Shown: positions 1-58,698 of the stretch, one piece after another
How the letters are laid out: each line of letters opens with the position of its first letter
Position numbering within the stretch: the first letter of the stretch is position 1
Virus record (IMG/VR): IMGVR_UViG_3300045988_132833
Origin: a virus
Reading direction: 5' to 3' (one strand)
DNA: 64,000 nucleotides
Program-made: the position numbers and the translations under genes
Notes under the pieces: model-generated
Told to the model about the DNA's origin: nothing
Database searches by the model: none
Seen by the model: only the letters and a program-made list of their open reading frames with translations

Positions 1-497
1 TCTATTAAGATTAGTCTCTTCCTCTATTTCCTCCATAGAAGGAGCTCTGCCATTCTTCTGCTCAAACTTCTCAGACATTTTATTTATCTTGCTCATATTA
101 ACTATTTGACTCATAGGAATTCTAACAGTTCTACACTGTTCAGATATAGCTCTCATAATAGATTGACGTACCCACCAAACGGCATAAGAAATAAATCTAT
201 ATCCTCTGGTTTCGTCAAACTTATAAGCAGCTTCAAGCATTCCAATATTTCCTTCCTGAATGAGATCAACTAAGTCAAGACCTTTATTCTGATATTGTTT
301 TGCAACAGAGATCACAAATCTTAGATTAGCAGTTACTAATTCATTAGCAGCAGCCTTATCTCCAAGTTTTATTCTCTTAGTAAGCTCTACCTCCTTCTCT
401 GGAGTAATCATAGATAGTTTGGACACATCCTTGAAATAAATTCCTAAGGATGCATCCTTTCTATCTGTTATAGATTGAGTGATTTTAAAACTCTTCA
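1..497 (-). CDS. Sigma-70 family RNA polymerase sigma factor, partial (C-terminus lies beyond the window start)
   Basis: Minus-strand translation from the ATG at 495-497 gives MKSFKITQ...DLIQEGNIGMLEAAYKFDETRGYRFISYAVWWVRQSIMRAI, which matches the sigma-70 region 2.1-2.4 consensus; the ORF runs off the window. Confidence 0.8.
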
Positions 498-1163
498 TTA
501 AAGAGTAATATTATTTTCTACTTGATACCTAGTAGTATCTTCGCAAAGTTGTTTAGTCAAGAACCTATCAGCTGTAGCTACTGAAGCGGCGTCAGTACTA
601 TTTCTTACTGCCTTAGCATAAGTATCAATGTGTGCGTAATTAGCTATAATATTTCTAGAGCCAGATACGGATCTCATTTCGATACCAAGCCTGTTGGCAT
701 CTTTGAGATCTTGGAGATTAGTACCCATATAGACGAAAGTCCAGCTGTACTTCTCCTCCTGGTGTTTAATTTTCGCCTTAACAGTATCAAAGTTATATTC
801 CCTAGAGGCATTTTCCTTACCGTCAGTCATGATTACTATCATGTTCTTAGAAGGACGCTCAGACTCATCCATATCAGAGAGCCATTTGCCTATCTCATCT
901 ATAGCAGTTCCTACACCATCATTCATAGCTGTACAGCCACCAGGAGAATAGGTAAGTCTAGGAACTTCATTTACTGGCTTACCTATATAGTACTTCTTAA
1001 CTGTATCTGAGAACATATATAAAGAAATAATACATTCTCCATTCTTCTCTCCTTTCTGTTCGTCAATGAGTTTCTGAAAACCTCCAATAACATCATCAAC
1101 GGAATTGTACATAGATCCACTCTCGTCTAGTACAAAACAAATGTGCAATAAATTACTTTTCAT
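498..1163 (-). CDS. von Willebrand factor type A (vWA) domain protein
   Basis: MIDAS-like DESGSM motif near the N-terminus, a TDG motif downstream, 221 aa. Confidence 0.6.
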   Translation of the reverse strand: MKSNLLHICFVLDESGSMYNSVDDVIGGFQKLIDEQKGEKNGECIISLYMFSDTVKKYYIGKPVNEVPRLTYSPGGCTAMNDGVGTAIDEIGKWLSDMDESERPSKNMIVIMTDGKENASREYNFDTVKAKIKHQEEKYSWTFVYMGTNLQDLKDANRLGIEMRSVSGSRNIIANYAHIDTYAKAVRNSTDAASVATADRFLTKQLCEDTTRYQVENNITL

Positions 1164-2530
1164 GCTTCATCCTCAATATTAGTTTCACCTTTATCCAATA
1201 ACTCTTGTTCTTTATTTAAGAATCTAAAACACTTAAGCTTAAAGGCATGGCTAAGTCCATCCTCTAGCTTAATTACAAGTCCCTCGTGTGGAACCTTATT
1301 TTTACAGTGTGGCGAATCTTTCTCCATGTAGAACTTAGGATCATCTGCTAACCTTTCTAGGAAGTTCTCATTCCAATGGTTGGCAATATCCAAGTCAGGG
1401 TATAAATCCTTTGCTTGTCCAAAATAGCATTCCTCAACTGGAGTAAGACCTACTTGTGCACACCACTGCTGAACTTGACGAGGAGTATATTCAAATACTT
1501 TACCATCTACATTAGTATAAGTAACTCTATAAATACGAACCTTAAAGTGTTTTTCAGGAGTATATGTTTCTCCCTCATTAGGAGGAACACACCCATAGTC
1601 GTACTTCTTCTGAATAAATCCTCCATTAGGAAGGTAGCCTACTATTTCATAATAAGCAGTCTGACCCTTAGCAAGACATGGGCGAACAATCTTGTCAGCC
1701 TCAGCCCAAACATCAACTCCATAGAAACCTCCCTGTACACCAGGATTATAGGTTCTGTTTTTAATTACCGTTCTGGATGCATATAGATAATCATACTTAT
1801 TAAACTCTTCACCAGTGAGCCACTTAGCAATCTTCTGCCGCCAAGTTAGTTCCTGCTTACAAAGTACGTATGCAGAAATGCCAGAAGTTCCATGGATTTT
1901 ATAAGAGAGCTGAATCCATGCATCTGGAGTAATTACATGAGGACATTTCTTAATAAGAGTTGTGTCGTAATGGAATCTAAATTGGGTATCGATGACCTTG
2001 TCAAGTCCCTTTGGGACCTTCTTGGAGATCCTGCCCTTGCTGCCGCCCTGTGAGATTTGTCTCTTTGCGACATATTTCTTACTAATCCAGAACTCTTTAC
2101 CGCTATGTGATACTGCGTCGAACTCAATACCTTCTTTGATTTCATTGATTTCATGATTTGTTACAGATACAATATAATTCTGAAGTATGACTATTGGTAA
2201 GATGAATCCTTCAGACAATTCACCTCTAAGCTTAATTGCCTTTACTCGTCCATTGTCGTCAAACATTCCAGATTGTTCTGGATCATTGTTTAACTCTTTG
2301 TGTCTATAGAGATTAGCAAATCTTAGAAAATCTCCATTGATACAGGATAAGGCTGGAAAATAGACATACAAGCCTGGTTGTGCATCTATTCCCGTAATAA
2401 TGTTAAATCCATCAATAGTACAACACTTGAGTCGTGTTACCTCTGGATCATTGTGCTTTCTGAAATTTGTAATATTTACAATCTTAGAAAGGTAGTTCTC
2501 ACTTGCTCTTTTACTTTTAATTAATTCCAT
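1160..2530 (-). CDS. Rnl2-family RNA ligase (nucleotidyltransferase) with an N-terminal extension
   Basis: Motif I KIHGTSG (compare T4 Rnl2 KIHGTN), motif IV EGLVIK, motif V FKLK; 456 aa. Confidence 0.6.
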   Translation of the reverse strand: MELIKSKRASENYLSKIVNITNFRKHNDPEVTRLKCCTIDGFNIITGIDAQPGLYVYFPALSCINGDFLRFANLYRHKELNNDPEQSGMFDDNGRVKAIKLRGELSEGFILPIVILQNYIVSVTNHEINEIKEGIEFDAVSHSGKEFWISKKYVAKRQISQGGSKGRISKKVPKGLDKVIDTQFRFHYDTTLIKKCPHVITPDAWIQLSYKIHGTSGISAYVLCKQELTWRQKIAKWLTGEEFNKYDYLYASRTVIKNRTYNPGVQGGFYGVDVWAEADKIVRPCLAKGQTAYYEIVGYLPNGGFIQKKYDYGCVPPNEGETYTPEKHFKVRIYRVTYTNVDGKVFEYTPRQVQQWCAQVGLTPVEECYFGQAKDLYPDLDIANHWNENFLERLADDPKFYMEKDSPHCKNKVPHEGLVIKLEDGLSHAFKLKCFRFLNKEQELLDKGETNIEDEA

Positions 2531-2531
2531 C

Positions 2532-2840
2532 TTATTTAATTATTAATCCACTAGATTTAAAAAACTCCAATAAATACCCAGCGTAGGTATTAGACTCTTC
2601 CTCAGAAAAGTCTCCTTTAGAACGCCATTGAAAAGCATGAAGTAACTCATGCCAAAAGGTATTCTCTATTTGTTCTTCTTTTAAAGGAACTACTGTTCCA
2701 TCATCATCTTTAACATTTCTCGCTAATTTAATCTTATCAGTTATACAACAATATTCTCCAAATTTTTGATCAGGAAGTGTATCAAATAATTCAACAGTTA
2801 TCTCTTGACTATTAATCGTAAATTTTTCAGGTATTCTCAT
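2532..2840 (-). CDS. Small HExxH motif protein (putative zinc metallopeptidase-like)
   Basis: HELLH motif in a 102 aa ORF. Confidence 0.3.
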   Translation of the reverse strand: MRIPEKFTINSQEITVELFDTLPDQKFGEYCCITDKIKLARNVKDDDGTVVPLKEEQIENTFWHELLHAFQWRSKGDFSEEESNTYAGYLLEFFKSSGLIIK

Positions 2841-3030
2841 AGCCCAGTTTGATCCGTAAAGAAATTAACATTACCAATTCCTACTATGTGAGCAGAGCCT
2901 TGCTTATCAACATAGTAATTTACTTCTCCATCGAAGTCAGGTATAGTGGTTACACACCAATCGTGAGATGCAATCCATTCATCTATATCTGGATTATATT
3001 TTCTTACTTCATCCAGATTAAAAACAGAAA

Positions 3031-3447
3031 CTAGTCCGGCGTCTGCGCAGAAGTTACCAAGTTCAGAGCAATGGATTCCATAATCTTCTCCTTTTCCCGA
3101 GCTTCTACAAAGTTATTAATCACCTTATAAGGGTCTTCGGTAATCTTATATGTAGTGCAACTCCAGTCTCCATAGATAGTAGACTCTGTAATATAATTGT
3201 GAATACCTAAAACCTCCATATTTTCCCCGCAATTGCACCTCGACCAGTCATCCTTTTCGTTATACTCTGCAAAATATTTCTCACAGGCTGCTTTATAAGC
3301 TAATTCATCTGGAGTTTTGTACTCTTTATAAGGCTTTCTATCTATACTTTCTGGAAGATTAAAGTCTGCTGGCTTCGGAGAAGGATAATTATTCTTCCTG
3401 ATTACATAGCATGGGTAAGTAATTATTATAGTTCCCTTAAATTTCAT
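3031..3447 (-). CDS. Hypothetical protein (Cys-rich)
   Basis: 138 aa ORF in the gene array; overlaps the neighbouring gene by 4 nt. Confidence 0.4.
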   Translation of the reverse strand: MKFKGTIIITYPCYVIRKNNYPSPKPADFNLPESIDRKPYKEYKTPDELAYKAACEKYFAEYNEKDDWSRCNCGENMEVLGIHNYITESTIYGDWSCTTYKITEDPYKVINNFVEAREKEKIMESIALNLVTSAQTPD

Positions 3448-4196
3448 ATTAATTTTTCAATATAATCCCTATCTTCTCCCTTAAAGATAGGGATTTCAGT
3501 GTCAATAAACCATGAATCTACTCCGTTTACTTCTTTCTTAATGCAGCAACTTCCCCTTTGTAAGTGTACTGGTAACTTATTCCAATCTGTTTGCTTCTCC
3601 TCAAGAAGTTTTTTCAGAATTTGATCTGTAGAAAGTCCCTGTAATTCTTTATGGGAAAAGTTAGCTCGTCCCACAGAATTTATGCTGTTTCTAATTGCAT
3701 CTTGCTGTCGCCATAAAATACAATTAGCTACTTCTTCTTTAGGTATATTAAAGCATCGAGAATCAAATAGTGCTCCCTTTACTGCAGCATCTACGTGGAT
3801 ATCTTCCAATGGAATACTTTTACTCCATATGATGTCTAGGAAGCCTCTATTAAATGCTAAAGTAGCTATTGATGCAGATACGCTACATACTTTTTGAATA
3901 TCATAATCAAACCAGGCAGCAGTTTCTAACTTCTTGTAGTCAGTTAAAACCAACGTAATTTCATCAGATTGTGTGTATCCTAGTACACAACCCTGAATCT
4001 CTTTACATAAAGTTAACATAGTTTGCTGCATAGCTTCAGTAAGAATATCGTCAAAAGGTTTCTTAAAACCTCTTGTAAAGGTATGGAAAGCTTTTCCGTC
4101 TAATCTTATAATTACTGGAGTTCTACGAAGGAGTTGAGTCTTGGCTCTATTCTCGTAGTTCTCTTTCATTCTATCTCCTAAATTATCTTTCTTCAT
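3444..4196 (-). CDS. Thg1-like protein (tRNA-His guanylyltransferase family 3'-5' nucleotidyltransferase)
   Basis: VIIRLDGKAFHTFT...KPFDD...GYTQSDEITLVL...FDSRCFNIP...WRQQD align with the Thg1 signature RLDGRNFHRF...KPND...AYGQSDEYSFVF...FDGRVVVYP...WRQAD. Confidence 0.85.
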   Translation of the reverse strand: MKKDNLGDRMKENYENRAKTQLLRRTPVIIRLDGKAFHTFTRGFKKPFDDILTEAMQQTMLTLCKEIQGCVLGYTQSDEITLVLTDYKKLETAAWFDYDIQKVCSVSASIATLAFNRGFLDIIWSKSIPLEDIHVDAAVKGALFDSRCFNIPKEEVANCILWRQQDAIRNSINSVGRANFSHKELQGLSTDQILKKLLEEKQTDWNKLPVHLQRGSCCIKKEVNGVDSWFIDTEIPIFKGEDRDYIEKLI

Positions 4197-4352
4197 TCAG
4201 TTTATCAATTGTTATAAATGCTAAAGCTGCTCCAAGTGTTAAAAATAGAACAAATGGATCTAAAGCCATCATAATTATCCACAATAAAACTCCAAGAGTA
4301 GCTCCTGGAAGAGCTAACAGCTTGAAGTTTTCAATAGTATATTTATCCATAA

Positions 4353-5573
4353 TTAATCTTCTAAGTCGAATCTAAATATTCTTAATTTTGGTTGAGTTGG
4401 GATGCCATCATCAGAATAGTTAAAGAAAGTACACTCAGCTTTATGTCCTCTATACTTATTATCAAAGCTCTTGACATATTCAGCTTTAGTAGCTCTGTCT
4501 CCAACTGGCATAGCCTCAAATGTTCTTCCATCTTTTAGTGCACATGTAAAGGTCATATCTTCAGAACCCCTAAGACCAAGCTTATATCCAACGACTGTAA
4601 AATCCTCAGATTTATATTGCTTAATCTTTATAAGATTGTTGCAACGAGATCCTACCTTATAAGGCTTAGAAGGATCAGTAATTACTGCACCTTCAAATCC
4701 TTCAGCAACCCATTTGTCATGAAGTTTCTTCATATTATCCCAACCCTCTACATATTCATGTAATAGGAGGCGAATTGGAACATTATGATCATCATCTTCA
4801 ATGGTTAGGTACATAGGAATATCACAATTATCACATAGCTCTAGCATAAGAAACTTATATCTATCTGAAGCTATCATATCTACATTAGAAGAATCGTAGC
4901 AATCGTAAACCCAATATTGTAACCAGTCACAATCATATGCATTCTTCTCCATTCTGGCAGCTCCACTTATTTGTTGAAGAGTTTTACCTCTAACAAAAAG
5001 TTCACCATCCAGAATTACAGTAGGATGTGCTTCAAAGAACTTTAAAAGCTTCAGATCCTCACGCAAGTGAGTAGTAGCAGCATCATAGTCTTCACCTCCT
5101 CTGGAAGCAGTATGTATTACCCCATCCTTGTAATAGAATAGGGCTTTTACTCCGTCAAGTTTTCTACTAATAAGCCACTTCTTTTCAAATATCTTTGGAT
5201 TGGTCACCTTATCTGCTTGTTTAGCAAGTTGGGGTTTAATTACCCCATATTGATTAGTCTTAACCTCTCCAAAAATTGACTGAAGCTCATCAAGGGTATA
5301 TTCCTTAGGATGTTTTTCTACTTCAACATATCCCTTGTCTAAGAACTTTTTGGTTTCAGAATTGAATTGAAGAGTATATTGCTCTTTCCAAGTTCTTTTC
5401 TGTTTAGTCCTATCTACAATAATCTTAGGCGATAGTGTAGTCTTGCCACCTACCTGACCATAGCTACGCTGTATTACGTAGCCATGTTCAGGTTCATGCC
5501 ATTCTTCATCGCATTCAACTACTGCGAAACGAAACTTTCCAGTTGATGCTTTACCAAGGAGATACTTAATCAT
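4353..5573 (-). CDS. ATP-dependent polynucleotide ligase (DNA ligase-like)
   Basis: Motif I KLDGVK, motif III DGELFV, motif IV EGAVIT, motif V LIKIK; 406 aa. Confidence 0.6.
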   Translation of the reverse strand: MIKYLLGKASTGKFRFAVVECDEEWHEPEHGYVIQRSYGQVGGKTTLSPKIIVDRTKQKRTWKEQYTLQFNSETKKFLDKGYVEVEKHPKEYTLDELQSIFGEVKTNQYGVIKPQLAKQADKVTNPKIFEKKWLISRKLDGVKALFYYKDGVIHTASRGGEDYDAATTHLREDLKLLKFFEAHPTVILDGELFVRGKTLQQISGAARMEKNAYDCDWLQYWVYDCYDSSNVDMIASDRYKFLMLELCDNCDIPMYLTIEDDDHNVPIRLLLHEYVEGWDNMKKLHDKWVAEGFEGAVITDPSKPYKVGSRCNNLIKIKQYKSEDFTVVGYKLGLRGSEDMTFTCALKDGRTFEAMPVGDRATKAEYVKSFDNKYRGHKAECTFFNYSDDGIPTQPKLRIFRFDLED

Positions 5574-5878
5574 TTCTGATTATCCTTAACCAAATTCCAA
5601 AGATCTTCTACTGTATCTGTAGGAATTTCCCTTCCATTTTCATCCCACATCTTGAGTTCTGGGTTTCCAGATTTTTCATACATCCACCAGTCTATGTCAT
5701 CTACTCCATCCTCATTAAACAAGAGATCTAAAGTTTTATTGAAGAGAACAGATGCATACTCTACCCAGTCACACTCGAAGAGTGTAGGCACACTGAGAGC
5801 TTCTGAAACTTCATCAATTCTATTAGACCACTCCTGTTGTTTCAAAATAAGATCAATAAATTCTTCCTTAGTTATCAT
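5570..5878 (-). CDS. Hypothetical protein
   Basis: 102 aa ORF; 4-nt overlap with the neighbouring gene. Confidence 0.4.
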   Translation of the reverse strand: MITKEEFIDLILKQQEWSNRIDEVSEALSVPTLFECDWVEYASVLFNKTLDLLFNEDGVDDIDWWMYEKSGNPELKMWDENGREIPTDTVEDLWNLVKDNQK

Positions 5879-5879
5879 T

Positions 5880-6083
5880 CTAACTATTTTTATTTAAACC
5901 ACCAATACAAATCATTTGATCTTTTGTTATGGTTTCGGCAATTTCCTTATTACTATTCCATCCAGTCATAAAATCACTAGTTGGAATATTAATGGCAATG
6001 CCACTACGTAGGTATACAGTAGTTATACCATTTCCTTTATCTAACCATCCATCTATTGCTTCTGTTTTAATAAATCCTTTCAT
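5880..6083 (-). CDS. Hypothetical protein
   Basis: 67 aa ORF in a tightly spaced array. Confidence 0.35.
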   Translation of the reverse strand: MKGFIKTEAIDGWLDKGNGITTVYLRSGIAINIPTSDFMTGWNSNKEIAETITKDQMICIGGLNKNS

Positions 6084-6442
6084 TTAATACCAGTTTCAAA
6101 GTATATGTCTTCTCCTTCCTCTAGAGTATCAAACTCAGGAAGTAACTTGTCTTTGACATAGTCTCTAACTTCTTCTACGTCATCATAGTAGTAATCATCA
6201 TAGTCTGTACTTCCAAAGAAGAATCCAGACATGGTAGGAAGCAATTCTGGACCTTTTGAGTGATCCCATAAAACTTCCTCACACTTAGAAAGTAGTTCTT
6301 CTGCATCTTCTCTCTTGATTACCAGTGGAGTCTGATTTGAAACATCAAACCCCTTCTCAAAGAACTTTACTAGAAAATTAACTTTTCTAAAGTAACCAAT
6401 CTCTGAACGTTTCTTTTTAGTAAGAAATATATCTAGTCCCAT
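6080..6442 (-). CDS. Hypothetical acidic protein
   Basis: 120 aa ORF, DYDDYYYDD acidic tract. Confidence 0.4.
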   Translation of the reverse strand: MGLDIFLTKKKRSEIGYFRKVNFLVKFFEKGFDVSNQTPLVIKREDAEELLSKCEEVLWDHSKGPELLPTMSGFFFGSTDYDDYYYDDVEEVRDYVKDKLLPEFDTLEEGEDIYFETGIK

Positions 6443-6445
6443 AGC

Positions 6446-6967
6446 TTACTTTAATCCAGTTGAATTAAAACCTCCATCTCCTCTCTCAGTTTCATCTAAA
6501 GATGCTACTTCATTCCATTCAATATGGAACACTCGTTCAAGGATACCCTGACAAATACGCTCCCCATCTTCAATGTATACATCCTCCAGACCAAGATTAA
6601 TCACTGGGAGATGCCACTCACCTCTATAGTCAGCGTCGATAGTGCCAGGGGTATTTACAAGAGTCAATCCATTCTTTATAGACATACCACTTCTTGGACG
6701 ACAGCTTACCTGCCATCCTTCAGGAATAGCAGCAAATATACCAGTAGGAAGCAAAGCTCTAGACCTTGGGGCAATTCGAATCATCGGAACTGTATGTCCT
6801 TCACCGGACCAAATAACCTCCGCATCTCCGAAACCCTTAATAGGAGTGTCTGGAGTAACACGACTCAAATCGACTCTAATGTCAAAACCAGCAGCACCTG
6901 CTGTTTCATACTTAGGGAGAGGGTTGTTAGACTTGTTAATTACGTTTACTACTATTTTATTTTCCAT
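6446..6967 (-). CDS. dut: dUTPase (dUTP pyrophosphatase) or dCTP deaminase-family enzyme
   Basis: AGAAGFDIR motif and GTIDADYRGEW motif III; 173 aa. Confidence 0.65.
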   Translation of the reverse strand: MENKIVVNVINKSNNPLPKYETAGAAGFDIRVDLSRVTPDTPIKGFGDAEVIWSGEGHTVPMIRIAPRSRALLPTGIFAAIPEGWQVSCRPRSGMSIKNGLTLVNTPGTIDADYRGEWHLPVINLGLEDVYIEDGERICQGILERVFHIEWNEVASLDETERGDGGFNSTGLK

Positions 6968-7223
6968 TGTTGTTTAAGTATTTAATAAGAGAATCAATTA
7001 CATCTTCTGCTTCTGTGTAAAAAGCTTTAATTGGCTTTTCGTCATCTAATATAACTGCAAATGGATCTAATTTGGCTCCATAGTAGGATTTAATCCTCCA
7101 TGCTTCCTTTTTACTCTTCTTAGCTAAAGAATCAACAAAATGAAAAATCGGAGTATACTTAGAAGTATCTCCGATTCTGTCAAGCTGATTCTTGTCACTG
7201 TAAACAACAATAATGTCTGTCAT
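6957..7223 (-). CDS. Hypothetical protein
   Basis: 88 aa ORF. Confidence 0.35.
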   Translation of the reverse strand: MTDIIVVYSDKNQLDRIGDTSKYTPIFHFVDSLAKKSKKEAWRIKSYYGAKLDPFAVILDDEKPIKAFYTEAEDVIDSLIKYLNNNGK

Positions 7224-7438
7224 AAAATAAACAATATAACAGCACCACAGACTAATCCAATGATGCTGTCAACAATCAGAATAAACATAGCTTTCTTTTG
7301 AAACTCCTCTAAATTGTCTCTTATTTGATAAAATAGATCTCGTGCAAGCTCATGTTTCTCCTGACTTCCTATTATACATAGCTTACTTAAGCTAAGTATG
7401 ATTAAAATAATTGCCCATATCTTCATGATTCCTTCCAA
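7220..7438 (-). CDS. Small membrane protein
   Basis: 72 aa with two hydrophobic segments. Confidence 0.35.
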   Translation of the reverse strand: MEGIMKIWAIILIILSLSKLCIIGSQEKHELARDLFYQIRDNLEEFQKKAMFILIVDSIIGLVCGAVILFIL

Positions 7439-7896
7439 AATTTATTTGTAATGTTAAGCAGAATGTTTTTATCACTTTCATGAACTACCTTATACATAAT
7501 CTGATTAGTATTAGGATTGTTTAGAGGTCCGAATTGCTCAACATATGGTCCAATCTTAATAAAATCAAACCATTTAGGATTAATTTCTGCACTCAGTATT
7601 TGCCTTCCACTATACCATCCAACCTTCAAATCTGTTGTTTCCTTAACTTGCTTAGCTAAAGTATTAATATAGTGTGGCTCAAGATCACCTCCCATAAAGC
7701 ATACACAGGTAATTCCTTTGTTTTTCTCAATGATGTCTTTCAACCTTCTCTGAGTTAATAAGGTACCTATGTCCTCTGCTAAATAAGAGGAATGACAACC
7801 AGGACATTTACAAGGACAATTAGAAATGTTTATTGCTAAGGAAATCTCATCTGGAATTTCTGCGAATACTACTTCATAATTAACGTATTTAAGCAT
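7423..7896 (-). CDS. nrdG: Anaerobic ribonucleoside-triphosphate reductase activating protein (radical SAM)
   Basis: Cys cluster CPCKCPGCHSS near the N-terminus; located directly downstream of nrdD. Confidence 0.7.
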   Translation of the reverse strand: MLKYVNYEVVFAEIPDEISLAINISNCPCKCPGCHSSYLAEDIGTLLTQRRLKDIIEKNKGITCVCFMGGDLEPHYINTLAKQVKETTDLKVGWYSGRQILSAEINPKWFDFIKIGPYVEQFGPLNNPNTNQIMYKVVHESDKNILLNITNKFWKES

Positions 7897-7906
7897 ACAT
7901 TCACAT

Positions 7907-8557
7907 TTAATATTCCCTTATTTCCTTAGAATCTAAGTCCATAATGAAACACTTCCTACAGTCTAGACAAGCAAAGTCAGGTTGAATTATTTCTTTCTTC
8001 ATTTGAGTATGTCCAAAGACTTGATAGAGATCAGGTATATGATCCTCTGACGCATACTCTCTAACGTCTCCCCAAAGGATTCCTCCAACTTCCGAAAATC
8101 CTCCCCTCCAAGGAGATACATCAGTTAAGGCTTTATGATCAAATTTCAGGTTCGGAACATCCTCTATAGAGAGGTTATTAACCTTTAACCACTTAGGAAG
8201 GACTCCAGCATGGCTAAATAGAATATCATTAACATGATAAGCAACCTTAAGATCTAGCCTCTTTAGAAGGGAAGTAACTTCGTGGTAATTGCCATAATCA
8301 ACTCTATCAGCAAACCCATCCATTATAAGGTAGTTGCCATCGTGGTTTCCTAAGAGGCAGACTACTCTGGACTTGTTATTCTCATAGAAATTTATAAGAA
8401 CTTTTAAATTTTCTAAGGAATTGTTTTTACTCACCTGCTGAGGGTATGGGTCGTGGTAGTCTCCTAAAAAGACTACCTTCCCCTCCCATTCTCTGCAAGG
8501 TTCTTTCCAGAAATCACGCCCATGAACATCTGGAATCACTAAAATTTCATTTTTCAT
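7907..8557 (-). CDS. Calcineurin-like metallophosphoesterase (PPP-family phosphatase)
   Basis: DVHGR, GDYHD and GNHD motifs. Confidence 0.6.
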   Translation of the reverse strand: MKNEILVIPDVHGRDFWKEPCREWEGKVVFLGDYHDPYPQQVSKNNSLENLKVLINFYENNKSRVVCLLGNHDGNYLIMDGFADRVDYGNYHEVTSLLKRLDLKVAYHVNDILFSHAGVLPKWLKVNNLSIEDVPNLKFDHKALTDVSPWRGGFSEVGGILWGDVREYASEDHIPDLYQVFGHTQMKKEIIQPDFACLDCRKCFIMDLDSKEIREY

Positions 8558-8750
8558 ACATTAATACCTGAGTTAAATAATTAATTGCAGCAAGCTCGGT
8601 GTCATGGAGTTTGATAGGAGTACCGTTAAGGTCTATATCCCATCCTTCCCCGTTAGCCCACTCAGTGACAGTTATATAATCACCCTCTTTAGCTACATAG
8701 CTATACTTATTTAAATCATCCAAAACGGACTTAAGATTCTTTCTTTCCAT
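8547..8750 (-). CDS. Hypothetical protein
   Basis: 67 aa ORF overlapping its neighbours. Confidence 0.35.
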   Translation of the reverse strand: MERKNLKSVLDDLNKYSYVAKEGDYITVTEWANGEGWDIDLNGTPIKLHDTELAAINYLTQVLMYEK

Positions 8751-28083: not shown

Positions 28084-28242
28084 AATTCCAACAACTACTC
28101 TCCTCATAAGCTTAAGCAGAAGCGGCTGTTTTCTGATTTATCCCACCTAGGCGAGTTAAACCAGCTTTATCACGTTCTGGAAGCTTATCCTACCATGCCT
28201 GTGCCGCTTTAAGATTTTCAAGTTTCTTCTTGTACTTCATAT
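28084..28242 (-). CDS. Small protein with one in-frame TAG
   Basis: By-eye translation MKYKKKLENLKAAQAW[TAG]DKLPERDKAGLTRLGGINQKTAASA then TAA. Confidence 0.3.
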
Positions 28243-29051
28243 TATACTACTTTAATCATTGTTACATTTTCTGGAAGATTCTCCCAGTCCTTATAAGAGT
28301 TAGTAAACCATACGTGATTGAAATTCTTAGATAGATTCTCAATGCCCTTAGGATTAACCATATGAACTACAGAGATGTTAAGTCTATCTTTAGGTATTCC
28401 AATCTTTTTGAAGCATTCTGCAATTCCACAGAAGGTTCCTCCTCCATCGCACAAATCATCAATTATCATTAATGGTCTACCATCAAGTTTTTCAGGATTG
28501 TCTATTTTAATCTCTAAAATTTTGCCAGTAGCCGTATCACGAACTTTGCTGCAAGATATAGGATCTTTATCAAGATATTCGTAGCGCTCCACTGCTCCAG
28601 CGTCTGGTAAGACTAACTGATAATCAACCGTCCAACCATCTGGGCGTATATGTTTCTCAGGATACAAGGCTCTAAATTTGTCTCCAAATCTATAATCGTA
28701 TATCGCATCTGAGTGAGGCTCTAAAACAGAAATATTTTCTGCGTTAGAATTACCAAGCATCTTTGTTATTACCTTAAGAGTAAATGGGCGGTTAAAGTCC
28801 ATGACTCTATCCATTCTCATTCCCATAAGATAAAATATATCGACGTCATAATAGACATCATGTCTGTCAAGAATGTCAAGAACCTGAGTTATAATGAATA
28901 ACTCCTCAGCATTAGTAATTCTACACTTTACACAGATTTGGTCCTTGTGACTGAAGTCTCCTAAGGAAATTTGTACTTCCCCATCTGGAAATCTGGATAG
29001 AGTATACTTAATGTCACTCTTCTCCAAATTTACTAAATTTAGAATTTGCAT
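28242..29051 (-). CDS. prs: Ribose-phosphate pyrophosphokinase (PRPP synthetase)
   Basis: FPDGEVQI and the PRPP-binding loop MIIDDLCDGGGT. Confidence 0.6.
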   Translation of the reverse strand: MQILNLVNLEKSDIKYTLSRFPDGEVQISLGDFSHKDQICVKCRITNAEELFIITQVLDILDRHDVYYDVDIFYLMGMRMDRVMDFNRPFTLKVITKMLGNSNAENISVLEPHSDAIYDYRFGDKFRALYPEKHIRPDGWTVDYQLVLPDAGAVERYEYLDKDPISCSKVRDTATGKILEIKIDNPEKLDGRPLMIIDDLCDGGGTFCGIAECFKKIGIPKDRLNISVVHMVNPKGIENLSKNFNHVWFTNSYKDWENLPENVTMIKVV

Positions 29052-29445
29052 AATCTACAACTTGTTTTAAAATGTTATAACTTTCTTCCAATCCCGCTCT
29101 ATCATCGAGCAGAATATTATAATAGGGTTTTCTGGATCTACTAAATATTGGACTAGTATTAACAAAGAAATGGGAACTCTTGTAGTTCCATAAATCATTA
29201 GATACTAGCCATCGTACCTTCTCAGATACTTTATCAGGATCCTCATCCACGGTAAACAGAATGAGATCAAACTCTAGTTTAATGCATTCTTTTAAAAGTT
29301 CAATGACTTCACTATAATCACCTCCATTATTATGGAAGTCATATATAGTGTTGTCAAAGTCAAAGGCAACAATCAGCTTACCGTATTTATCATACTCCCC
29401 TTTGAGCCTATCTAAGCAGGCTTGCTGATTGAATGGGTGCTTCAT
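29014..29445 (-). CDS. HAD-like hydrolase
   Basis: VAFDFDNTIYDF (DxDxT) motif; 143 aa. Confidence 0.4.
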   Translation of the reverse strand: MKHPFNQQACLDRLKGEYDKYGKLIVAFDFDNTIYDFHNNGGDYSEVIELLKECIKLEFDLILFTVDEDPDKVSEKVRWLVSNDLWNYKSSHFFVNTSPIFSRSRKPYYNILLDDRAGLEESYNILKQVVDYANSKFSKFGEE

Positions 29446-30992
29446 AGTGTTGAATTTACACGTTCTCGAATCTCAGAAAGAGAATATTCTCTTACTAAGT
29501 CTCCATTTACAAAGACTGTTTCAAGACAACCTTCCAGTTCTGCATCCTTAGTCTGCTGGTCATAAGCAACATACTTACCATTCTCTTCTTCAACTCTTAT
29601 AAGACCTTTAAGAGAGTTCTTTGTCCCATCATCAGTCTTTGGATGCTTATAAATTTCTATAAGTCTTCCATTAATTATACAAGCAGTTGCTTTAACTGCG
29701 AATCCCAAAGAATCACGGGACTTAAACTGATAAGTATAAGATCCAATACCAAGAACAAGATTACAAGCTGCCATATGAGCATTCTCTAATCGAGCATAGA
29801 TGTCACGCTGACGCTCCAGAGTAATAGAATCTCCATAGAGCAAACCTATCTTGGTACTTGGATAACGATAATCATTTATAGTAGTATTCCATCCAAAGAT
29901 TTTACCTAGCATATAATATGCTCCATAATACTGACCTTCAGATACTTCTACATAATGATTCTCATCATCATCCATAAATGGATTGAAATCACAGTAATAC
30001 TTACCTTCTTTCATAGCAGTATGGTAATGAGGATTTGTACGAAGACCACAAATAATGTCTACTGGATCACCACTATCAGGACGAATTACTACTCTACCAT
30101 CACGTTTCATAATATCTGCCTTGAGCTTAGGCAAGAACTTCTCAACTACCTGCCAGAAATCCCAAGTATCAGATACTATTGAAATAATACCTGTTGGATA
30201 TAGGTCATTAATAAGACGGCGATATGTTTCAATCTCATCATCCTCACCTCCTGCACACATTACACTGTGTTCAGTTGCTGGAACAGTTGCAGCTACAAGT
30301 TCTTTAGTAACATCTGCATTGTAATAATGCTCTACTGCTTCGATAGCAGGTATTGTTTCACTACCACAGAATGAAGTCATGTGAGCCATACCAGAGATAA
30401 TAGCAGCATCAAGTCCTGCCATACCTCTCATTGAGAAATCGTGACAAGAGAAGCCTAGATTTACATCTTCTGGGAATCCAGTCTTTTTAGCATGTTCCAT
30501 AAGTCTCTTCTTATAAAGGCGAGCACTTGTTGCAGAAGTACAAGGAAGCCATAGAGTACAACTAATCAAAGTTTCCAAATAATTAGTCAACCAGAAGAAA
30601 TCAGGAAGAGTATTCTTAATAGTCATCATAGGTACTCTTATAGGGCAGATAGAGCCTTCAGGAAGAGCTTTAATTTCAATAGGAAGATATCCTAAATCAT
30701 AAAGTTCCTCAATATGCTTTGTTCCAACCTGATTAAGGTCTACAAAGTTACCTACACGATAAGCAAATTGCTTAATGGCTTCTTCCTTAGGAAGAGCAAA
30801 CCATTTATTAAATTCCTCAATCAGATACTTCTTTACAAAGTACTGAATACCAAATACTACAGAGCCTTCTGTGGCTTCTGGAAAGTAACGGCAACTTCTT
30901 GGAGTCCAGTTACTATAAACCATTTGTGTACCCTCTGGGTACATACGATGATGACCAAGTTTGTAGCCATCAGTTGCATTAATAATTTCCAT
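29442..30992 (-). CDS. nadV: Nicotinamide phosphoribosyltransferase (NAMPT/NadV)
   Basis: N-terminal ATDGYKLGHH matches the NAMPT TDSYK signature; 516 aa. Confidence 0.65.
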   Translation of the reverse strand: MEIINATDGYKLGHHRMYPEGTQMVYSNWTPRSCRYFPEATEGSVVFGIQYFVKKYLIEEFNKWFALPKEEAIKQFAYRVGNFVDLNQVGTKHIEELYDLGYLPIEIKALPEGSICPIRVPMMTIKNTLPDFFWLTNYLETLISCTLWLPCTSATSARLYKKRLMEHAKKTGFPEDVNLGFSCHDFSMRGMAGLDAAIISGMAHMTSFCGSETIPAIEAVEHYYNADVTKELVAATVPATEHSVMCAGGEDDEIETYRRLINDLYPTGIISIVSDTWDFWQVVEKFLPKLKADIMKRDGRVVIRPDSGDPVDIICGLRTNPHYHTAMKEGKYYCDFNPFMDDDENHYVEVSEGQYYGAYYMLGKIFGWNTTINDYRYPSTKIGLLYGDSITLERQRDIYARLENAHMAACNLVLGIGSYTYQFKSRDSLGFAVKATACIINGRLIEIYKHPKTDDGTKNSLKGLIRVEEENGKYVAYDQQTKDAELEGCLETVFVNGDLVREYSLSEIRERVNSTL

Positions 30993-33172: not shown

Positions 33173-33670
33173 TTAATGTAAGAAATCATAAACAGTTGGG
33201 TCTACTACAATTGTGCCATTAACTACACAGTAGTCATGGTCCTTGGTAAAATTATACATTCTAGTATCTCCAATGGACTTAAAGAATTTTGGAATAAATT
33301 CTAAACCCTTTATGGGTTCTCTCCTTATTTCACAAGTTGCTTTTAAGTTACCTTTTGAGATAATGTAATCAAATACCTTCTTATAAGTTCTAGCATAATA
33401 GACACAATGAGTTTTAGTCTCTTTGTTTAATGATAACTTATCAAAACCCTTATATTCAGATTTTGTAGAAAAAGTTAATGTACGAGAAGTTATCTCATTT
33501 GAGAAATCAATAACTTCCTTCAAATTATTCGGATTGATATGTCCATATTCTATTTTCATATCTATACAAGAATAGATATTTCCAGAATACTGAGATTTAC
33601 CCATCCCATAGCAATACCATGCGATAAACATACATGGAATGCTAATAAGCAATACTAACATCTTTTTCAT
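33173..33670 (-). CDS. Secreted/membrane-anchored protein
   Basis: N-terminal hydrophobic signal MKKMLVLLISIPCMFIAWYCYG; 165 aa. Confidence 0.45.
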   Translation of the reverse strand: MKKMLVLLISIPCMFIAWYCYGMGKSQYSGNIYSCIDMKIEYGHINPNNLKEVIDFSNEITSRTLTFSTKSEYKGFDKLSLNKETKTHCVYYARTYKKVFDYIISKGNLKATCEIRREPIKGLEFIPKFFKSIGDTRMYNFTKDHDYCVVNGTIVVDPTVYDFLH

Positions 33671-35713
33671 GCCTTATTTTCTCTTTCTTTTCTTATTATT
33701 TCAGAATATTTATTGTATACATTCCGCATACTATCTACCTTTTCGAGTGGGATATTATACTAATATCTCATTTTGTCAATATTATTTCCCAAATTCTTTC
33801 TAGTCACTCCTAATGTAACTGGAAGTCCTCTAGGAGAAAGTGCTGAATAGGATGCACCTTCATCTGGATCCCAAGCTGCTTCGTCAGTTAATACTACATT
33901 AAATCCATTCTTATTTCTAGACTAGGACATACTCATACCTCCATTAGAGTATTCAACTCTCTGTCCAGGATTAAGGAATTTTATAGGATTACTAAAATCT
34001 GCATATTTAGCTTCCCTGCCATGTGACCTATTATACACTTGGTAAACCCAAGGAGTTAATCCCTTCTAATCAGAGGCTATTGCCAGAGCAGCCAACTCTT
34101 GAATTTGATTATTGAAGTTATCTGACATATCTTTTTCGGTACGAGTTGTACTCTTTGAATCCAAACCAATTTTATTTCTCCACCCTTTATGAAGATCGTG
34201 AACATAAAAGTTAGTTGGTTCAAAGTTATAACCTGTAGTGACAAGCCCAGCTAAGCCCAAAGTACCTAATGCTCTATTCCTTCGAATTTTACTTGCCTCA
34301 TCCGAAATGAATGGCTTCATTGCTTCTTGCCTAACCTTTAGAAGGGCTAATTTATTTTCATCCCCTCCAAATTCTCTAGTGCCACTCTTGTAAACCTTAG
34401 TAGCTTTATCAGAGTTTTCCTACATCCATTTGAGTTGAGCCTTAGAAGCTGCACTCCTCATGGCTTTTGCATCCCTGATAGACTGCTTCTTCCCTTCTAA
34501 GTTGATTTCTCTCATCTTCTATGTAGGTCTCCAACTACCTGTCTACTGCAATATTTTCTACTTTGCAAGCTTGTTTAACTTCTTTTCAGCTGCAGCTTCA
34601 CCCGTAAAGATCCTCCCTAATCTATTTGAAGCTAACTTAGCCTTATTTACTAACTTACCAAACTAGAGAATTGCTCCTCTCTGTGCTTTATTAATTTGTT
34701 TCATTAGTATCCGAATTGCATCTTTCTCTAGTATATAGAGAATAAACTGTTAGGATTATATTGCTATGCCCAATTTGAAACAGTCTTATTGAAAGCATCC
34801 TAGGTTTGCTATCCCCACTTACCATCAGCATTTATTCCAAGTTTCTCTTGAAGTTGCTTGACAGCTTCCGGACTATTGTAACCAGCTTTAGCAGCACGAT
34901 AATCGAACACACTGTCATAGCCGCTATTATGAGCTTCCATAGTGTCATCAGCCGTACCTATAATTTGTCCAGTTTGTTTATTATATATATAACCATTGCT
35001 GCCTTGTAGGTACTGATCGGGAGTCAACCAATTTGTTCCATCGTAATAATTAGTATTTCCATACCTATCTATTCCGAATCCTTGCTGTTGATTTTCATAC
35101 TAACCAGTTTCCTGATTCCACTCCTGCCAACCATTGTTTGGGTTATACATATATTGCTATGGAGTTTCCTCTGCAGCACTAGGCTATTTAGAATTTCTTG
35201 GAATAACTAGATAAGCTCCAGTACCAAGACCACCTACGAGTCCAGTAGTTTTAAGAGTTCTTTTAATACCCTTATTCCTAACTTGTCTTAGGGCATCATT
35301 CGTAACCTGTCTCTTAGTATTATTGAAAGCTTCCTTAGCTTCCATACTTTTCTATGATGCAGTTATTGCACTTCTTTCAGCTTCATCTGTTTTTCGCGCA
35401 GCATCATTTACTCTCTTTACATTTCTTTTACTATTAGGCTACTTCCAATTTTTAGTACTGTTTAATAATTTACTTTCTGCTTGCTAAGCTTCTTTATATC
35501 TTTGAGCTGCAAGATTATGACTCATTTCAGCTCCTCTCTAACTATTTCTAGATGCAATTAATTCTGGAGAAGCTTGCCTAGCTCTAACGACAGCTCTTTC
35601 ACCTCCTCCAATTCGTCTCATCAGGTTTCCGAAGTAATCTGGTATCATCTAACCATGACCTTTTAACCAATTTACTCCCTCACCTAAGTATTGTGCTTTC
35701 TTTTTAATACTCA
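33668..35713 (-). CDS. Late/structural-region gene(s) densely interrupted by in-frame TAG codons (TAG likely read as sense)
   Basis: By-eye translation from the ATG at 35711-35713 gives MSIKKKAQYLGEGVNWLKGHG[TAG]MIPDYFGNLMRRIGGGERAVVRAR[Q]ASPELIASRNS[TAG]RGAEMSHNLAAQRYKEA[TAG]QAESKLLN... The first ~0.25 kb contains three TAGs and no TAA/TGA. Every ORF-track fragment in the block ends in TAG (34066, 34809, 36238). The terminal TGA overlaps the next gene start. Exact gene boundaries are uncertain. Confidence 0.5.
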
Positions 35714-35729
35714 TATTTAATTATTATTA

Positions 35730-36991: not shown

Positions 36992-37027
36992 TTTCTTCTT
37001 TTTTTTTTTGTTTACAGGAACAGGTAG

Positions 37028-37106
37028 TACCTCCTAGTGGATTCGAACCACTGACAGTTTCACTAATATAGACTTTGTTAAACTTCTACCACTGATATAA
37101 GGAGGT
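37028..37106 (-). tRNA. tRNA-like gene with a candidate CUA anticodon (putative amber suppressor), non-canonical fold
   Basis: Perfect 7-bp acceptor ACCTCCT/AGGAGGT, T-arm AGTGG-TTCGAAT-CCACT, D-loop AGTGGTAGA; anticodon arm ACAAA-GTCTATA-TTAGT (U33 then CTA) stacked on a further 5-bp stem AGTTT/AAACT; the D-stem is poorly paired; 79 nt. Confidence 0.4.
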
Positions 37107-40931: not shown

Positions 40932-40949
40932 TTATAAAATTTTTATTAA

Positions 40950-41471: not shown

Positions 41472-41547
41472 TTTTTCTTACAATCCTTAATAGTGTCACA
41501 AATTGTGTCTACAATGAATAGTGCTACTACTGATATACAGATTATGA

Positions 41548-42129: not shown

Positions 42130-42135
42130 ACTTTG

Positions 42136-44693: not shown

Positions 44694-44695
44694 AA

Positions 44696-48776: not shown

Positions 48777-48850
48777 GGTCACACCTGGGAGTCGAACCCA
48801 TTCTTCAATGTTCACAGCATTGCGTGCTAACCGTTACACTAAATGGACCA
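48777..48850 (-). tRNA. tRNA-His-like (anticodon GTG) with an unpaired acceptor stem
   Basis: Anticodon arm CAATG-CTGTGAA-CATTG, D-arm GTGT-AACGGTTA-GCAC, T-arm ATGGG-TTCGACT-CCCAG. G-1 and C73 are present, but the 5' strand GTCCATT pairs with the 3' strand GTGTGAC only at positions 1-3 and 7. Confidence 0.4.
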
Positions 48851-49470: not shown

Positions 49471-49600
49471 TAGAGTTACCCAGAGTACGCCACGTGGAGG
49501 CTTGTCTATGTACTCCTGGAGATGAGGGGAGTCGAACCCCTGTCTTACATATTTGCATCAAAGCATTCTTACAGCATAGGTTTTAAAGACTATCCTTGTC
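49471..49600 (-). pseudogene. Degenerate tRNA-like element plus a duplicated 3'-flank motif
   Basis: T-arm AGGGG-TTCGACT-CCCCT is present but no 5' acceptor partner or anticodon arm folds. The 49471-49520 segment (ATTAGAGTTACCC[AG][AG]AGTA..CCACG.GGAGG) repeats at 51231-51282, where it flanks an intact tRNA-Pro. Confidence 0.35.
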
Positions 49601-49885
49601 TTTTAGGGTTGACAGGATTGATATACTGTTAACTTCCACCACTCTGTTCCTGAAGTGTACAGAGAACTTATAGAATTGTCAATGGCGCACCTTTCTGTTC
49701 CTAAGCAAGTGCTGCTCGGCTTATTAGGCAGCAGCCTGATAAGCAGGAGTCATATTAATAACTCTAGCATTTATTGTTTTGTTGTCTTTCCAACTGTCTT
49801 TGCTGTGCTTCTTATCTCCTATGCAATCAAAACCAAACATCCCCATAGTAAGCAGTTTCAGGTCATGCTTAGGACTTTCTTTCAC

Positions 49886-50520: not shown

Positions 50521-51274
50521 TTTACAAGAATACATTTGCTGTTAGATTCCTTCTTATAATTTATTCTGGTAAATTACCATATTCCCATTTATATTTAAAG
50601 GCAGTTTTAGCCTTGTGCTTGCAGCAATTTGTAATTTTACTCGTTGCTGTTCTATTTTTTGCTAATCCATGCTCTACCAACCAATCCATTGCGTCCTAAA
50701 TGCTCTGGAATGTCTAGATGTAATTCCCAGCAAGATCATACTAAAGAACAACTTTAGAATCTCCCTTCCTTATTTTAATGGAATTTGTTTTTGCTACTTT
50801 ATATACAATATCAGAACAACATCCAACTTTATTACAAACCTGAGCAGAACTATACCCCAATTTAAGGAGATCAACTATTTCACGATAATCATAGAGTATC
50901 TTTCCATCTCCACCACAGGTAGCATTGTATCCTCCAGAGCCAAAGGTTTGCAACTCCTTGATCCAAAAGATCTCTCTTTGCGAGAGGACATCCTAAGATA
51001 TTCCATCTTCTAGTATGTCTAGTCGAAAGTTTTCTATCCCATACTTATTCATTGCATCATAAAGAGGTCGCTTATTACATCTTTTCTTCTAGCTATCTAC
51101 ACAGTGTTCCTTGAATCTTTCCTCAGGATTTTTAGTAGTTTTTCCTATATACCTTTTGTTATTTAATAAGTTTGTAATGCAATAAATATATCCCATATTA
51201 CTTTTTTTTTTCTTTATTATAAGCTATTAGAGTTACCCGAAGTATACCACGCGGAGGTTGCTTACACATACTTC

Positions 51275-51362
51275 TCTAGGTGACAGGACTCGAACCTGCA
51301 TCCGCTTATTAAGCCTCCACCTGATCCCAAATCAGGGCTCTAGCCAATTAGAGTACACCTAG
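51275..51362 (-). tRNA. tRNA-Pro (anticodon TGG) with a long variable arm
   Basis: Acceptor CTAGGTG/CACCTAG, D-arm CTCT-AATTGGCT-AGAG, anticodon arm CCTGA-TTTGGGA-TCAGG, about 20-nt variable region containing a GCTT-AAT-AAGC hairpin, T-arm GCAGG-TTCGAGT-CCTGT. Confidence 0.5.
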
Positions 51363-51474
51363 ATAAACAGAAGACTTGTTTGTACTTACTTGATCCCTAA
51401 TCGAGTGTATGAAATACTTGCTGTTAGTCTTCTTACTTATTAACAATAAAAACAAAAAAGAGTATCCAGTCGAG

Positions 51475-57192: not shown

Positions 57193-57360
57193 AATTATTG
57201 GTAGACAAAATTAAAAAATGATATTTTTGTCTACCTTAAAGTCTGTCGGGTCTACCATTCCCCCATAGAGCCATCCTTTCTTAAAGAAGTTTGTATATCA
57301 TAATTATTATTTTCAAAATAGTCCTGTACGATTTGAGCATTGTTAAGAGGCTTGACAGGA

Positions 57361-58609: not shown

Positions 58610-58698
58610 TGGTGTTCCCTATGGGACTAGAACCCATGACCCTCGGATTAAAAGTCCGATGCTCTCTAGCCTTGCGGAACCAACTGAGCTAAGGGAAC
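58610..58698 (-). tRNA. tRNA-Lys (anticodon TTT) with an enlarged D-loop; CCA encoded
   Basis: Acceptor GTTCCCT/AGGGAAC followed by ACCA, anticodon arm TCGGA-CTTTTAA-TCCGA, T-arm ATGGG-TTCTAGT-CCCAT; D-arm GCTC...GAGC encloses about 21 nt. Confidence 0.6.

Follow-up and report, generated by a model that had tools for sequence, protein, structure and literature searches.

A Thg1-like protein, an Rnl5-like RNA ligase and a T4-Pnk-like kinase in a metagenomic gut phage: a possible dispersed toolkit for RNA end repair

The stretch of DNA analysed here (the window) comprises 64,000 nt of the IMG/VR virus record IMGVR_UViG_3300045988_132833, and all of its genes lie on the minus strand. A preliminary description, made from the sequence alone, had placed an Rnl2-family RNA ligase, a Thg1-like protein (TLP) and an ATP-dependent ligase within 1160-5573 and had read them as an RNA-end repair cluster. 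Three minus-strand open reading frames (ORFs) were located at exactly these coordinates, 1160-2530 (456 amino acids, aa), 3444-4196 (250 aa) and 4353-5573 (406 aa), and all of the quoted motifs were found: YKIHGTSG and PHEGLVIK in the first, IRLDGKAFHTF, QSDE and WRQQD in the second, and RKLDGVK, LDGELF, FEGAVIT and LIKIK in the third. The matches behind all three assignments are well outside what chance would give. A search for a polynucleotide kinase elsewhere in the genome located a T4-Pnk-like kinase just beyond the window, three genes downstream of the RNA ligase. The principal genes are as follows.

1160..2530, minus strand: predicted ATP-dependent RNA ligase of Rnl5-like layout (PHROG 968, homologue profile, AlphaFold/Foldseek)
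3444..4196, minus strand: bacterial-type TLP, predicted templated 3'-5' nucleotidyltransferase (PF04446, PHROG 4717, 4kgk)
4353..5573, minus strand: ATP-dependent DNA ligase (PF01068, PHROG 114, African swine fever virus ligase 6imj)
L085:12884-13348 in a relative, about 0.36 kb past the window edge: T4-Pnk-like kinase, 154 aa, three genes beyond the RNA ligase (PHROG 505, AAA_33)

Packing is tight around the cluster (overlaps or gaps of 1-14 nt), the sole exception being a 190-nt stretch at 2841-3030, which is explained by the out-of-frame tail of a frameshifted gene described below. Promoter and terminator scans (sigma-70) of positions 1-9000 returned counts not above those in shuffled sequence (26 vs 31.9±5.6 and 6 vs 3.8±2.0, respectively) and were uninformative as to operon structure. 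No GenBank phage matched the first 8 kb of the window by megablast, and the phage is known from metagenomes only; its host is probably a member of the Bacteroidota. Its nearest relatives are IMG/VR gut-virome contigs of 165-175 kb, with 96-100% identity in the RNA ligase and 86-99% in the TLP, and the gut-phage family carrying a TLP and an Rnl5-like ligase is abundant.

The 250-aa TLP matched Pfam PF04446 (E=2.5e-30, 105.5 bits against a gathering cut-off of 29.2), PHROG 4717 'tRNA-His guanylyltransferase' (E=1.8e-85) and, over residues 4-249, the solved TLP of Bacillus thuringiensis (BtTLP, 4kgk; E=3e-60). Judged by these matches, its membership of the Thg1 family, as first described, is beyond doubt. 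The catalytic role of the Thg1 carboxylates is established from Thg1 structures; in the window protein the metal-binding carboxylates are D33 (in RLDG) and D78/E79 (in QSDE), with a WRQQDAIRN motif at 162-170, and D33, D78 and E79 align with their counterparts in BtTLP, an archaeal TLP and Candida Thg1. Alignment of seven phage TLPs with 34-68% identity to the window protein showed no variation at D33, G34, S77, D78, E79, R163, Q164, D166 or N170. Matches to Candida, human and yeast-type Thg1 reached E values of only about 1e-7 to 1e-6, and HINNLYN, the motif that marks eukaryotic Thg1, stands in Candida Thg1 opposite AIRNSIN in the TLP. From its residues, the protein looks to be an active enzyme of the bacterial type and not a eukaryotic Thg1. 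Activity on 5'-truncated tRNAs may be expected by analogy with BtTLP, which repairs such tRNAs in vitro with a preference of 5- to 160-fold and without restriction to tRNA-His (PMC3061083); 3'-5' addition begins at an ATP-activated 5'-monophosphate (PMC6471195). TLPs had been called uncommon in phages, and homologues were indeed found in just 164 of 50,697 GenBank phage records, where the listed complete genomes are all large (88-552 kb) and the gene is usually annotated; the family is nonetheless already catalogued (PHROG 4717) and discussed (PMC7824862).

The 456-aa protein at 1160-2530 is a ligase-type nucleotidyltransferase by both profile and fold. It matched PHROG 968 'RNA ligase' (E=2.1e-40), and a Pfam scan of the whole protein gave nothing above threshold, a spurious glycosyl-hydrolase match being the sole hit, so that family placement required a profile and a structural model. 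Sub-threshold matches were obtained to PF21189 (OB, 18 bits) and PF09414, and NCBIfam TIGR02306 (RNA_lig_DRB0094) scored 25.4 bits against a cut-off of 151.15, with the OB region alone aligned. The protein has relatives in about 1,960 clusters at 50% identity. The domains run from an OB domain (about 1-152) through a basic disordered linker (157-177) to a nucleotidyltransferase domain (about 180-456), which holds motif I at K211 (KIHGTSG), motif III at E295, motif IV at E416-G417 (EGLVIK) and motif V at K431/K433; K211, G214, E295, E416, G417, K431 and K433 are invariant across 68 homologues 34-56% identical to the query. A profile of these 68 homologues matched the OB domain of the Naegleria gruberi RNA ligase (NgrRnl) over residues 7-110 (E=5e-7) and the nucleotidyltransferase domain of T4 Rnl2 (E=6e-6). 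Foldseek searches with the AlphaFold model (predicted local distance difference test score, pLDDT, 74) ranked NgrRnl structures top (E about 1e-12, about 440 columns), followed by T4 Rnl2 (E=4e-6) and a trypanosome editing ligase. The C-terminus lies 23 residues past motif V, and the protein therefore lacks the C-terminal domain that defines Rnl2.

An N-terminal OB domain fused to a C-terminal adenylyltransferase domain is the signature of Rnl5, a family already known to take in bacterial viruses (PMC5397189). Profile and model together place the window protein as a distant relative with the Rnl5 layout, in a sister clade (PHROG 968), and not as an equivalog. Of the earlier Rnl2-family assignment, the RNA ligase with its nucleotidyltransferase motifs stood, and the Rnl2 type was dropped: the N-terminal OB domain is present, the C-terminal helical domain is absent, and T4 Rnl2 matches the shared nucleotidyltransferase core alone. 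Records of this ligase family in GenBank phages number 379, mainly in actinobacteriophages, where the gene is annotated 'RNA ligase'. Nicks with an RNA 3'-OH strand are sealed by Rnl5 enzymes, whose functions have been termed "uncharted" (PMC5397189).

The third enzyme, earlier given as an ATP-dependent ligase, is one by its matches to PF01068 (E=1.6e-15, 57.8 bits against a cut-off of 26.2) and PHROG 114 (E=2.9e-42), and proved to be the DNA ligase of the replication module. Among solved structures the best match was to the DNA ligase of African swine fever virus (6imj, E=2.7e-15, residues 107-356); the motif I lysine is K138 (K138-L-D-G) and the N-terminal domain spans about 105 aa. Gene neighbourhoods were surveyed at 75 RNA-ligase-centred loci from related phages, the set to which every count out of 75 refers. 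The DNA ligase lay 1.8-4.1 kb upstream of the RNA ligase in 73 of them, and its neighbours are dUTPase, NrdG/NrdD and, in relatives, DNA polymerase. The backbone runs in the order metallophosphoesterase, NrdG, dUTPase, DNA ligase, HExxH protein, RNA ligase, sigma factor, kinase and DNA polymerase A; this constant surrounding of the RNA ligase is a module of replication and early genes. As part of the replication and nucleotide-metabolism backbone, the DNA ligase is an ordinary replicative ligase and does not belong to RNA repair. The three genes do not form a conserved unit: the two ligases keep close together throughout the phage family, and the TLP stands between them in the sub-clade of the window only.

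The kinase gene begins where the sigma factor gene ends and was found downstream of the RNA ligase in 59/75 loci. Its product matched PHROG 505 'polynucleotide kinase' (E=4.6e-26) and AAA_33 (E=1.5e-14), as well as Capnocytophaga Pnkp1 (4xrp) and T4 Pnk (1ly1), the P-loop, NxDDxR and RxSKR motifs all lining up. It also resembles seryl-tRNA(Sec) kinase (TIGR03574, E=1e-12, below that model's cut-off), and for this reason its action on polynucleotides is given as a probable assignment. The protein covers positions 2-142 of the 295-position PHROG profile and has no HAD phosphatase domain, which is present in the 304-aa sister-clade orthologue (HAD_PNKP, E=8.7e-27).

Association of the TLP with end-healing enzymes was found to recur beyond the window. 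The TLP was within 10 kb of the RNA ligase in just 14/75 loci, and at least 48 of 73 ligase-bearing IMG/VR contigs also have a TLP. In the sister clades, about 45 loci have a full Pnkp (AAA_33 plus HAD_PNKP) at 0.9-2.5 kb from the TLP and a CCA-adding-type nucleotidyltransferase (PF01743, E=7e-18) 1-4 kb away. The order there is CCA-adding-type nucleotidyltransferase, MazG-like protein, full Pnkp, 1-3 small genes and TLP, a compact tRNA-end module made up of CCA-adding enzyme, Pnkp and TLP. Homologues of the RNA ligase abut Pnkp in phages outside the family, namely Alleb of Microbacterium and Jojan60 of Stenotrophomonas, whose kinase domains are homologous to the kinase of the window lineage (E=2e-13 and 4e-11, respectively). 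In Mycobacterium phage Pound the TLP is two genes from Pnkp, and in Aeromonas phage 4L372D it is about 1 kb from a tRNA nucleotidyltransferase. Lak megaphages carry both TLP and ligase in 15/15 records; in Lak-B2 a distance of 2.7 kb, occupied by other genes, separates the two. The pattern has limits: no repair gene was found near the TLP of Bacillus phage FADO or Fusobacterium phage FNU3.

The window phage may be equipped with a dispersed RNA/tRNA end-repair toolkit (kinase, TLP and Rnl5-like ligase) set in its early replication module, with the DNA ligase as an unrelated neighbour, a reading to which we give about even credence. It is built on family and catalytic-residue assignments and on gene-neighbourhood patterns, from which we infer the working steps. 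Host nucleases would damage tRNAs during infection, possibly including the approximately 21 phage-encoded tRNAs. The kinase would convert 5'-OH ends to 5'-phosphate; the TLP would activate the 5'-phosphate with ATP and refill missing acceptor-stem 5' nucleotides in the 3'-to-5' direction, templated by the 3' strand; and the RNA ligase, adenylylated on K211, would seal 3'-OH/5'-phosphate nicks inside base-paired RNA. The DNA ligase would seal nicks in replication DNA and take no part in repair, its position between toolkit members being the proposed outcome of a lineage-specific rearrangement. Support for repair comes from the Pnk-like kinase nearby, from the CCA-adding enzyme/Pnkp/TLP module of the sister clades, and from the adjacency of ligase to Pnkp and of TLP to Pnkp in unrelated phages. 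Of the RNA-end repair cluster first described, what survives is the nearby kinase and the recurrent links of Pnkp, TLP and ligase, and what falls is the part of the DNA ligase, the three genes proving not to be a conserved unit.

Several observations weigh against the toolkit. The steadiest neighbours of the RNA ligase are replication genes (DNA ligase, dUTPase, NrdG, sigma factor and DNA polymerase). Adjacency of TLP and RNA ligase is specific to the lineage; elsewhere in the family the TLP follows the RNA ligase at a distance of 3-13 kb. A relative with about 95% identity to the window and no TLP retains the RNA ligase, the kinase and tRNA-His. TLP and ligase are also no obligate partners, since the Omegavirus phage Pound has a TLP and Pnkp and no ligase in the 60-90 kb stretch examined, and the annotations of the Omegavirus phage Courthouse include a ligase and Pnkp and no TLP. 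Refilling of 5' ends by a TLP requires no ligase, and we know of no nuclease that trims tRNA 5' ends. No CCA-adding enzyme was found in the window or among the ORFs that follow the ligase in the nearest relative, and scans of about 40 further window proteins returned no RtcB, 2H phosphoesterase, CCA-adding enzyme or peptidyl-tRNA hydrolase; with a kinase that has no phosphatase and no CCA-adding enzyme found, 3'-end healing is unaccounted for. In prokaryotic assemblies, 4-5 of 80 further TLP loci had a detectable homologue of the ligase, Pnkp or CCA-adding enzyme, in a test limited to relatives of the query proteins, and a general link between TLPs and repair genes in such assemblies was dropped.

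The main competing account, which we consider a possible but somewhat unlikely one, has no joint pathway, the three being early genes that are unrelated to one another: the Rnl5-like ligase would act, alongside the DNA ligase, on DNA replication or repair intermediates with ribonucleotide 3'-OH nicks (unremoved primers, ribonucleotide patches), and the TLP would be a free-standing accessory gene present by chance. DNA ligase, HExxH protein (102 aa) and RNA ligase do make up a conserved backbone surrounded by dUTPase, NrdD/G, sigma factor and DNA polymerase A, and the TLP belongs to a presence/absence cassette (below). The ligase and TLP of Lak-B2 flank a 502-aa P-loop ORF, a putative DnaB-type replicative helicase. 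The sole genetic evidence on an Rnl5 enzyme indicates DNA repair: DraRnl tolerates DNA both as the template and as the 5'-phosphate strand, and genome reassembly is delayed when it is knocked out (PMC5397189), which fits the constant company of the RNA ligase with replication genes. The same ligase family, however, abuts Pnkp in Alleb and Jojan60, the kinase follows the ligase in most of the loci surveyed, and links of the TLP to Pnkp or to a CCA-adding enzyme recur. In T4, RNA repair classically pairs Pnkp with an RNA ligase, and this too speaks against a purely DNA-directed role.

The cassette was delimited by blastn of the window against L141 (IMGVR_UViG_3300045988_110911, about 95% identical to the window), and its parts are as follows.

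3253..4359, strand not assigned: presence/absence cassette comprising the 55-aa ORF, the TLP and the start of the next gene
4183..4350, minus strand: 55-aa hydrophobic protein, confined to the closest TLP-bearing relatives and absent together with the TLP from L141
2838..3447, minus strand: function-unassigned gene directly after the TLP, frameshifted by three-frame translation (138-aa ORF at 3031-3447 plus an out-of-frame remainder at 2838-3030)

In L141 the interval 3253-4359 is replaced by 275 bp, and the absence of the cassette from so close a relative marks the TLP as dispensable; the 55-aa protein is gained or lost jointly with it. The gene after the TLP is intact in the closest relatives (203 aa in L085 and L087, 162 aa in L086, 191 aa in L141) and had no family match in Pfam or PHROG scans; in the window it is either a pseudogene or affected by a sequence error. 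The nearest relatives further differ from the window by insertions at the ligases: a 1.36-kb insert with a 261-aa ORF (L141:8659-10018) splits the RNA ligase gene after about residue 189, and in L085 a 1.4-kb insert is found upstream of 7380, at the 5' end of the gene for the DNA ligase. The genes for ribonucleotide reductase and DNA polymerase in L003 are divided, with GIY-YIG and LAGLIDADG ORFs in between. The insertions that interrupt core genes of close relatives are mobile.

The remaining genes of the backbone within the window are as follows.

1..498, minus strand: sigma-70-family factor, N-terminal 166 residues, running off the window (matches L085:12033-12887; PHROG 351, E=2.8e-65)
2532..2840, minus strand: 102-aa HExxH protein (WHELLHAF), possible small zinc metallopeptidase, adjoining the RNA ligase upstream in 66/75 loci
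7907..8557, minus strand: calcineurin-type metallophosphoesterase, conserved in the backbone (PF00149, E=3.3e-6)

The sigma factor was downstream of the RNA ligase in 65/75 loci. The HExxH protein gave weak matches (SprT-like PF10263, E=0.009; PHROG 1233, function unknown, E=2e-8) and forms a conserved gene pair with the RNA ligase. The metallophosphoesterase, a 35%-identical homologue of which lies 3 kb from the ligase in Lak-B2, is a weak candidate for a 3'-end healing enzyme; that it replaces the lost Pnkp phosphatase was not supported, the gene being equally present in clades with full Pnkp.

Eighteen tRNAs were predicted in the window by ARAGORN, to which Rfam added a tRNA-Thr(UGU), a weak tRNA-His(GUG), a weak tRNA-Phe-like gene and a transfer-messenger RNA (tmRNA). 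The RNA features with particular bearing or unusual form are listed here.

48777..48848, minus strand: tRNA-His(GUG), missed by ARAGORN (Rfam tRNA model, 33.9 bits)
49514..49844, minus strand: tmRNA, unreported by ARAGORN (RF00023, 60 bits against a gathering value of 47)
51274..51363, minus strand: tRNA-Pro, 90 nt, with an unusually long variable region
57322..57359, minus strand: abiF RNA motif in the tRNA array (RF03085, 50.1 bits against 37), beside an HNH endonuclease gene at 56674-57138
58610..58698, minus strand: tRNA-Lys(UUU) with a 14-nt D-loop insertion by Rfam alignment, read by ARAGORN with a 4-base anticodon
59890..59962, minus strand: tRNA-Phe(GAA)-like gene, weak (35 bits), with an A4:C69 mismatch and a non-canonical T-loop

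Acceptor stems were fully Watson-Crick or G-U paired at positions 1-7 in 18/18 of the ARAGORN tRNAs and in tRNA-Thr, which leaves without support the suggestion in the preliminary description that the system matures aberrant phage tRNAs. Taken as editing of mismatched 5' ends of phage tRNAs by the TLP, as occurs in amoebozoan mitochondria, this suggestion is largely refuted by the pairing. It had in its favour the large tRNA array and the precedent of Dictyostelium mitochondria, where a TLP performs 5' editing (PMC6471195), and it is now very improbable; the two low-scoring tRNA-like genes are irregular at 4-6 or at 4:69 and not at 1-3. The tRNA-Phe(GAA)-like gene is possibly a decaying tRNA. 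The tRNA-Lys(UUU) encodes its 3' CCA, unlike the other tRNAs of the window.

The tRNA-His is a possible client of the TLP. The gene encodes G-1 and C73, unpaired or bulged positions 4-6 make the acceptor stem irregular, and the gene is kept in four close relatives, where one G/A difference preserves pairing. The TLP could serve to restore or guarantee G-1 opposite C73, an irregular acceptor stem perhaps misleading RNase P, with the ligase irrelevant; TLPs do add G-1 opposite C73 by Watson-Crick templating (PMC3061083; DdiTLP2, PMC6471195), and the window tRNA-His has both C73 and an aberrant stem. We regard this explanation as improbable, because G-1 is already encoded in the gene, an irregularity at 4-6 is beyond mending by 5' addition at -1, and enzymes of the BtTLP type favour truncated tRNAs of any identity (PMC3061083). 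The TLP-less relative also retains the same tRNA-His gene (L160), which weakens the case for this tRNA as an obligate client.

A narrower form of the repair toolkit would be a dedicated repair of the 5' strand of the tRNA acceptor stem by kinase and TLP, with the Rnl5-like ligase for in-stem nicks, directed against an undescribed host nuclease that would trim or nick the 5' ends of tRNAs. We hold this to be unlikely. Retention of the kinase portion alone of Pnk would fit a 5'-end-centred pathway without 3'-end healing. Were it true, it would give a first physiological role to a bacterial-type TLP, and the natural pair of TLP-plus and TLP-minus phages, together with the sister-clade module, would make it testable.

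Other features of the window are typical of large phages or concern codon usage.

28242-30992: region of auxiliary genes, including nicotinamide phosphoribosyltransferase at 29442-30992, minus strand
33667-37106, minus strand: three consecutive ORFs (345, 336 and 424 aa) open only with TAG read-through
37027..37106, minus strand: amber-suppressor tRNA, anticodon CUA, directly upstream of the TAG read-through ORFs
39123-40931, minus strand: Band-7/SPFH protein, auxiliary gene
42136-46103, minus strand: cluster of amidoligase, glutamine amidotransferase, phiEco32-like COOH-NH2 ligase and Peptidase_C26 protein
50561-51196, minus strand: ORF adjoining the tRNA-Pro at 51274-51363

The auxiliary genes at 28242-30992 and 39123-46103 are of a kind typical of large phages. 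The three ORFs at 33667-37106 hold 8, 12 and 10 in-frame TAG codons, the block looks like a partial TAG recoding, and the remainder of the window outside it uses the standard code. One of the read-through proteins ends in what we take, by reading, to be a candidate peptidoglycan-binding-like motif. The ORF at 50561-51196 needs read-through of 5 TAG codons and is, by its GIY-YIG motif, putatively homing-endonuclease-like.

In terms of annotation the locus is ordinary, every component being already catalogued in phages. This family brings a bacterial-type TLP and an Rnl5-like ligase into recurring genomic company with a polynucleotide kinase and a CCA-adding enzyme, as well as about 21 tRNAs and a tmRNA. 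With the TLP-plus/TLP-minus pair and suitable substrates it can be asked whether 3'-5' polymerisation keeps translation going during infection.

The individual enzymes may be compared with their characterised relatives. The TLP matches BtTLP over its full length, and the catalytic DG and SDE and the WRQQD-x-x-NS motifs are in both; it differs in being phage-encoded and in a 13-residue insert around 120-140. The RNA ligase resembles the Rnl5 enzymes DraRnl and NgrRnl in its N-terminal OB domain, in a nucleotidyltransferase domain ending soon past motif V and in the conservation of motifs I, III, IV and V, but is about 115 residues longer (456 vs about 340 aa), with inserts and the basic disordered linker. 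With T4 Rnl2 it has the nucleotidyltransferase core in common, and nick-sealing chemistry is to be expected, whereas the N-terminal OB domain and the lack of a C-terminal helical domain set it apart. Relative to the sister-clade CCA-adding enzyme/Pnkp/TLP module (e.g. L012:6213-10786), the window lineage has orthologues of the TLP (65% identical) and of the kinase domain (about 52%), but the kinase is truncated, no CCA-adding enzyme was found, and the TLP is relocated between the DNA and RNA ligases.

Toolkits of this kind are already described in phages, and Thg1 in phage RNA repair is already in the literature. Sporadic Thg1, RNA ligases, polynucleotide kinases, CCA-adding enzymes and tRNA arrays are listed as jumbo-phage RNA repair (Iyer et al. 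2021, PMC7824862), and Thg1, RNA ligases, kinases and tRNA arrays are proposed there as a phage counter to tRNA-cleaving defences. The window phage resembles these sets, and the T4 repair by Pnkp with Rnl1/Rnl2, in its 5'-kinase, ATP-dependent RNA ligase, tRNA array and sporadic Thg1. It differs in that its ligase is Rnl5-like rather than Rnl1/Rnl2, its kinase is without the HAD phosphatase that the sister clades retain, its genes are scattered in the replication module and form no operon, and its genome of about 175 kb is below the usual jumbo-phage size. The specifics of the lineage (an Rnl5-like rather than Rnl1/Rnl2 ligase, a kinase-only Pnk, a mobile TLP cassette and a tight CCA-adding enzyme/Pnkp/TLP module in the sister clades) are a modest but useful addition to these known systems.

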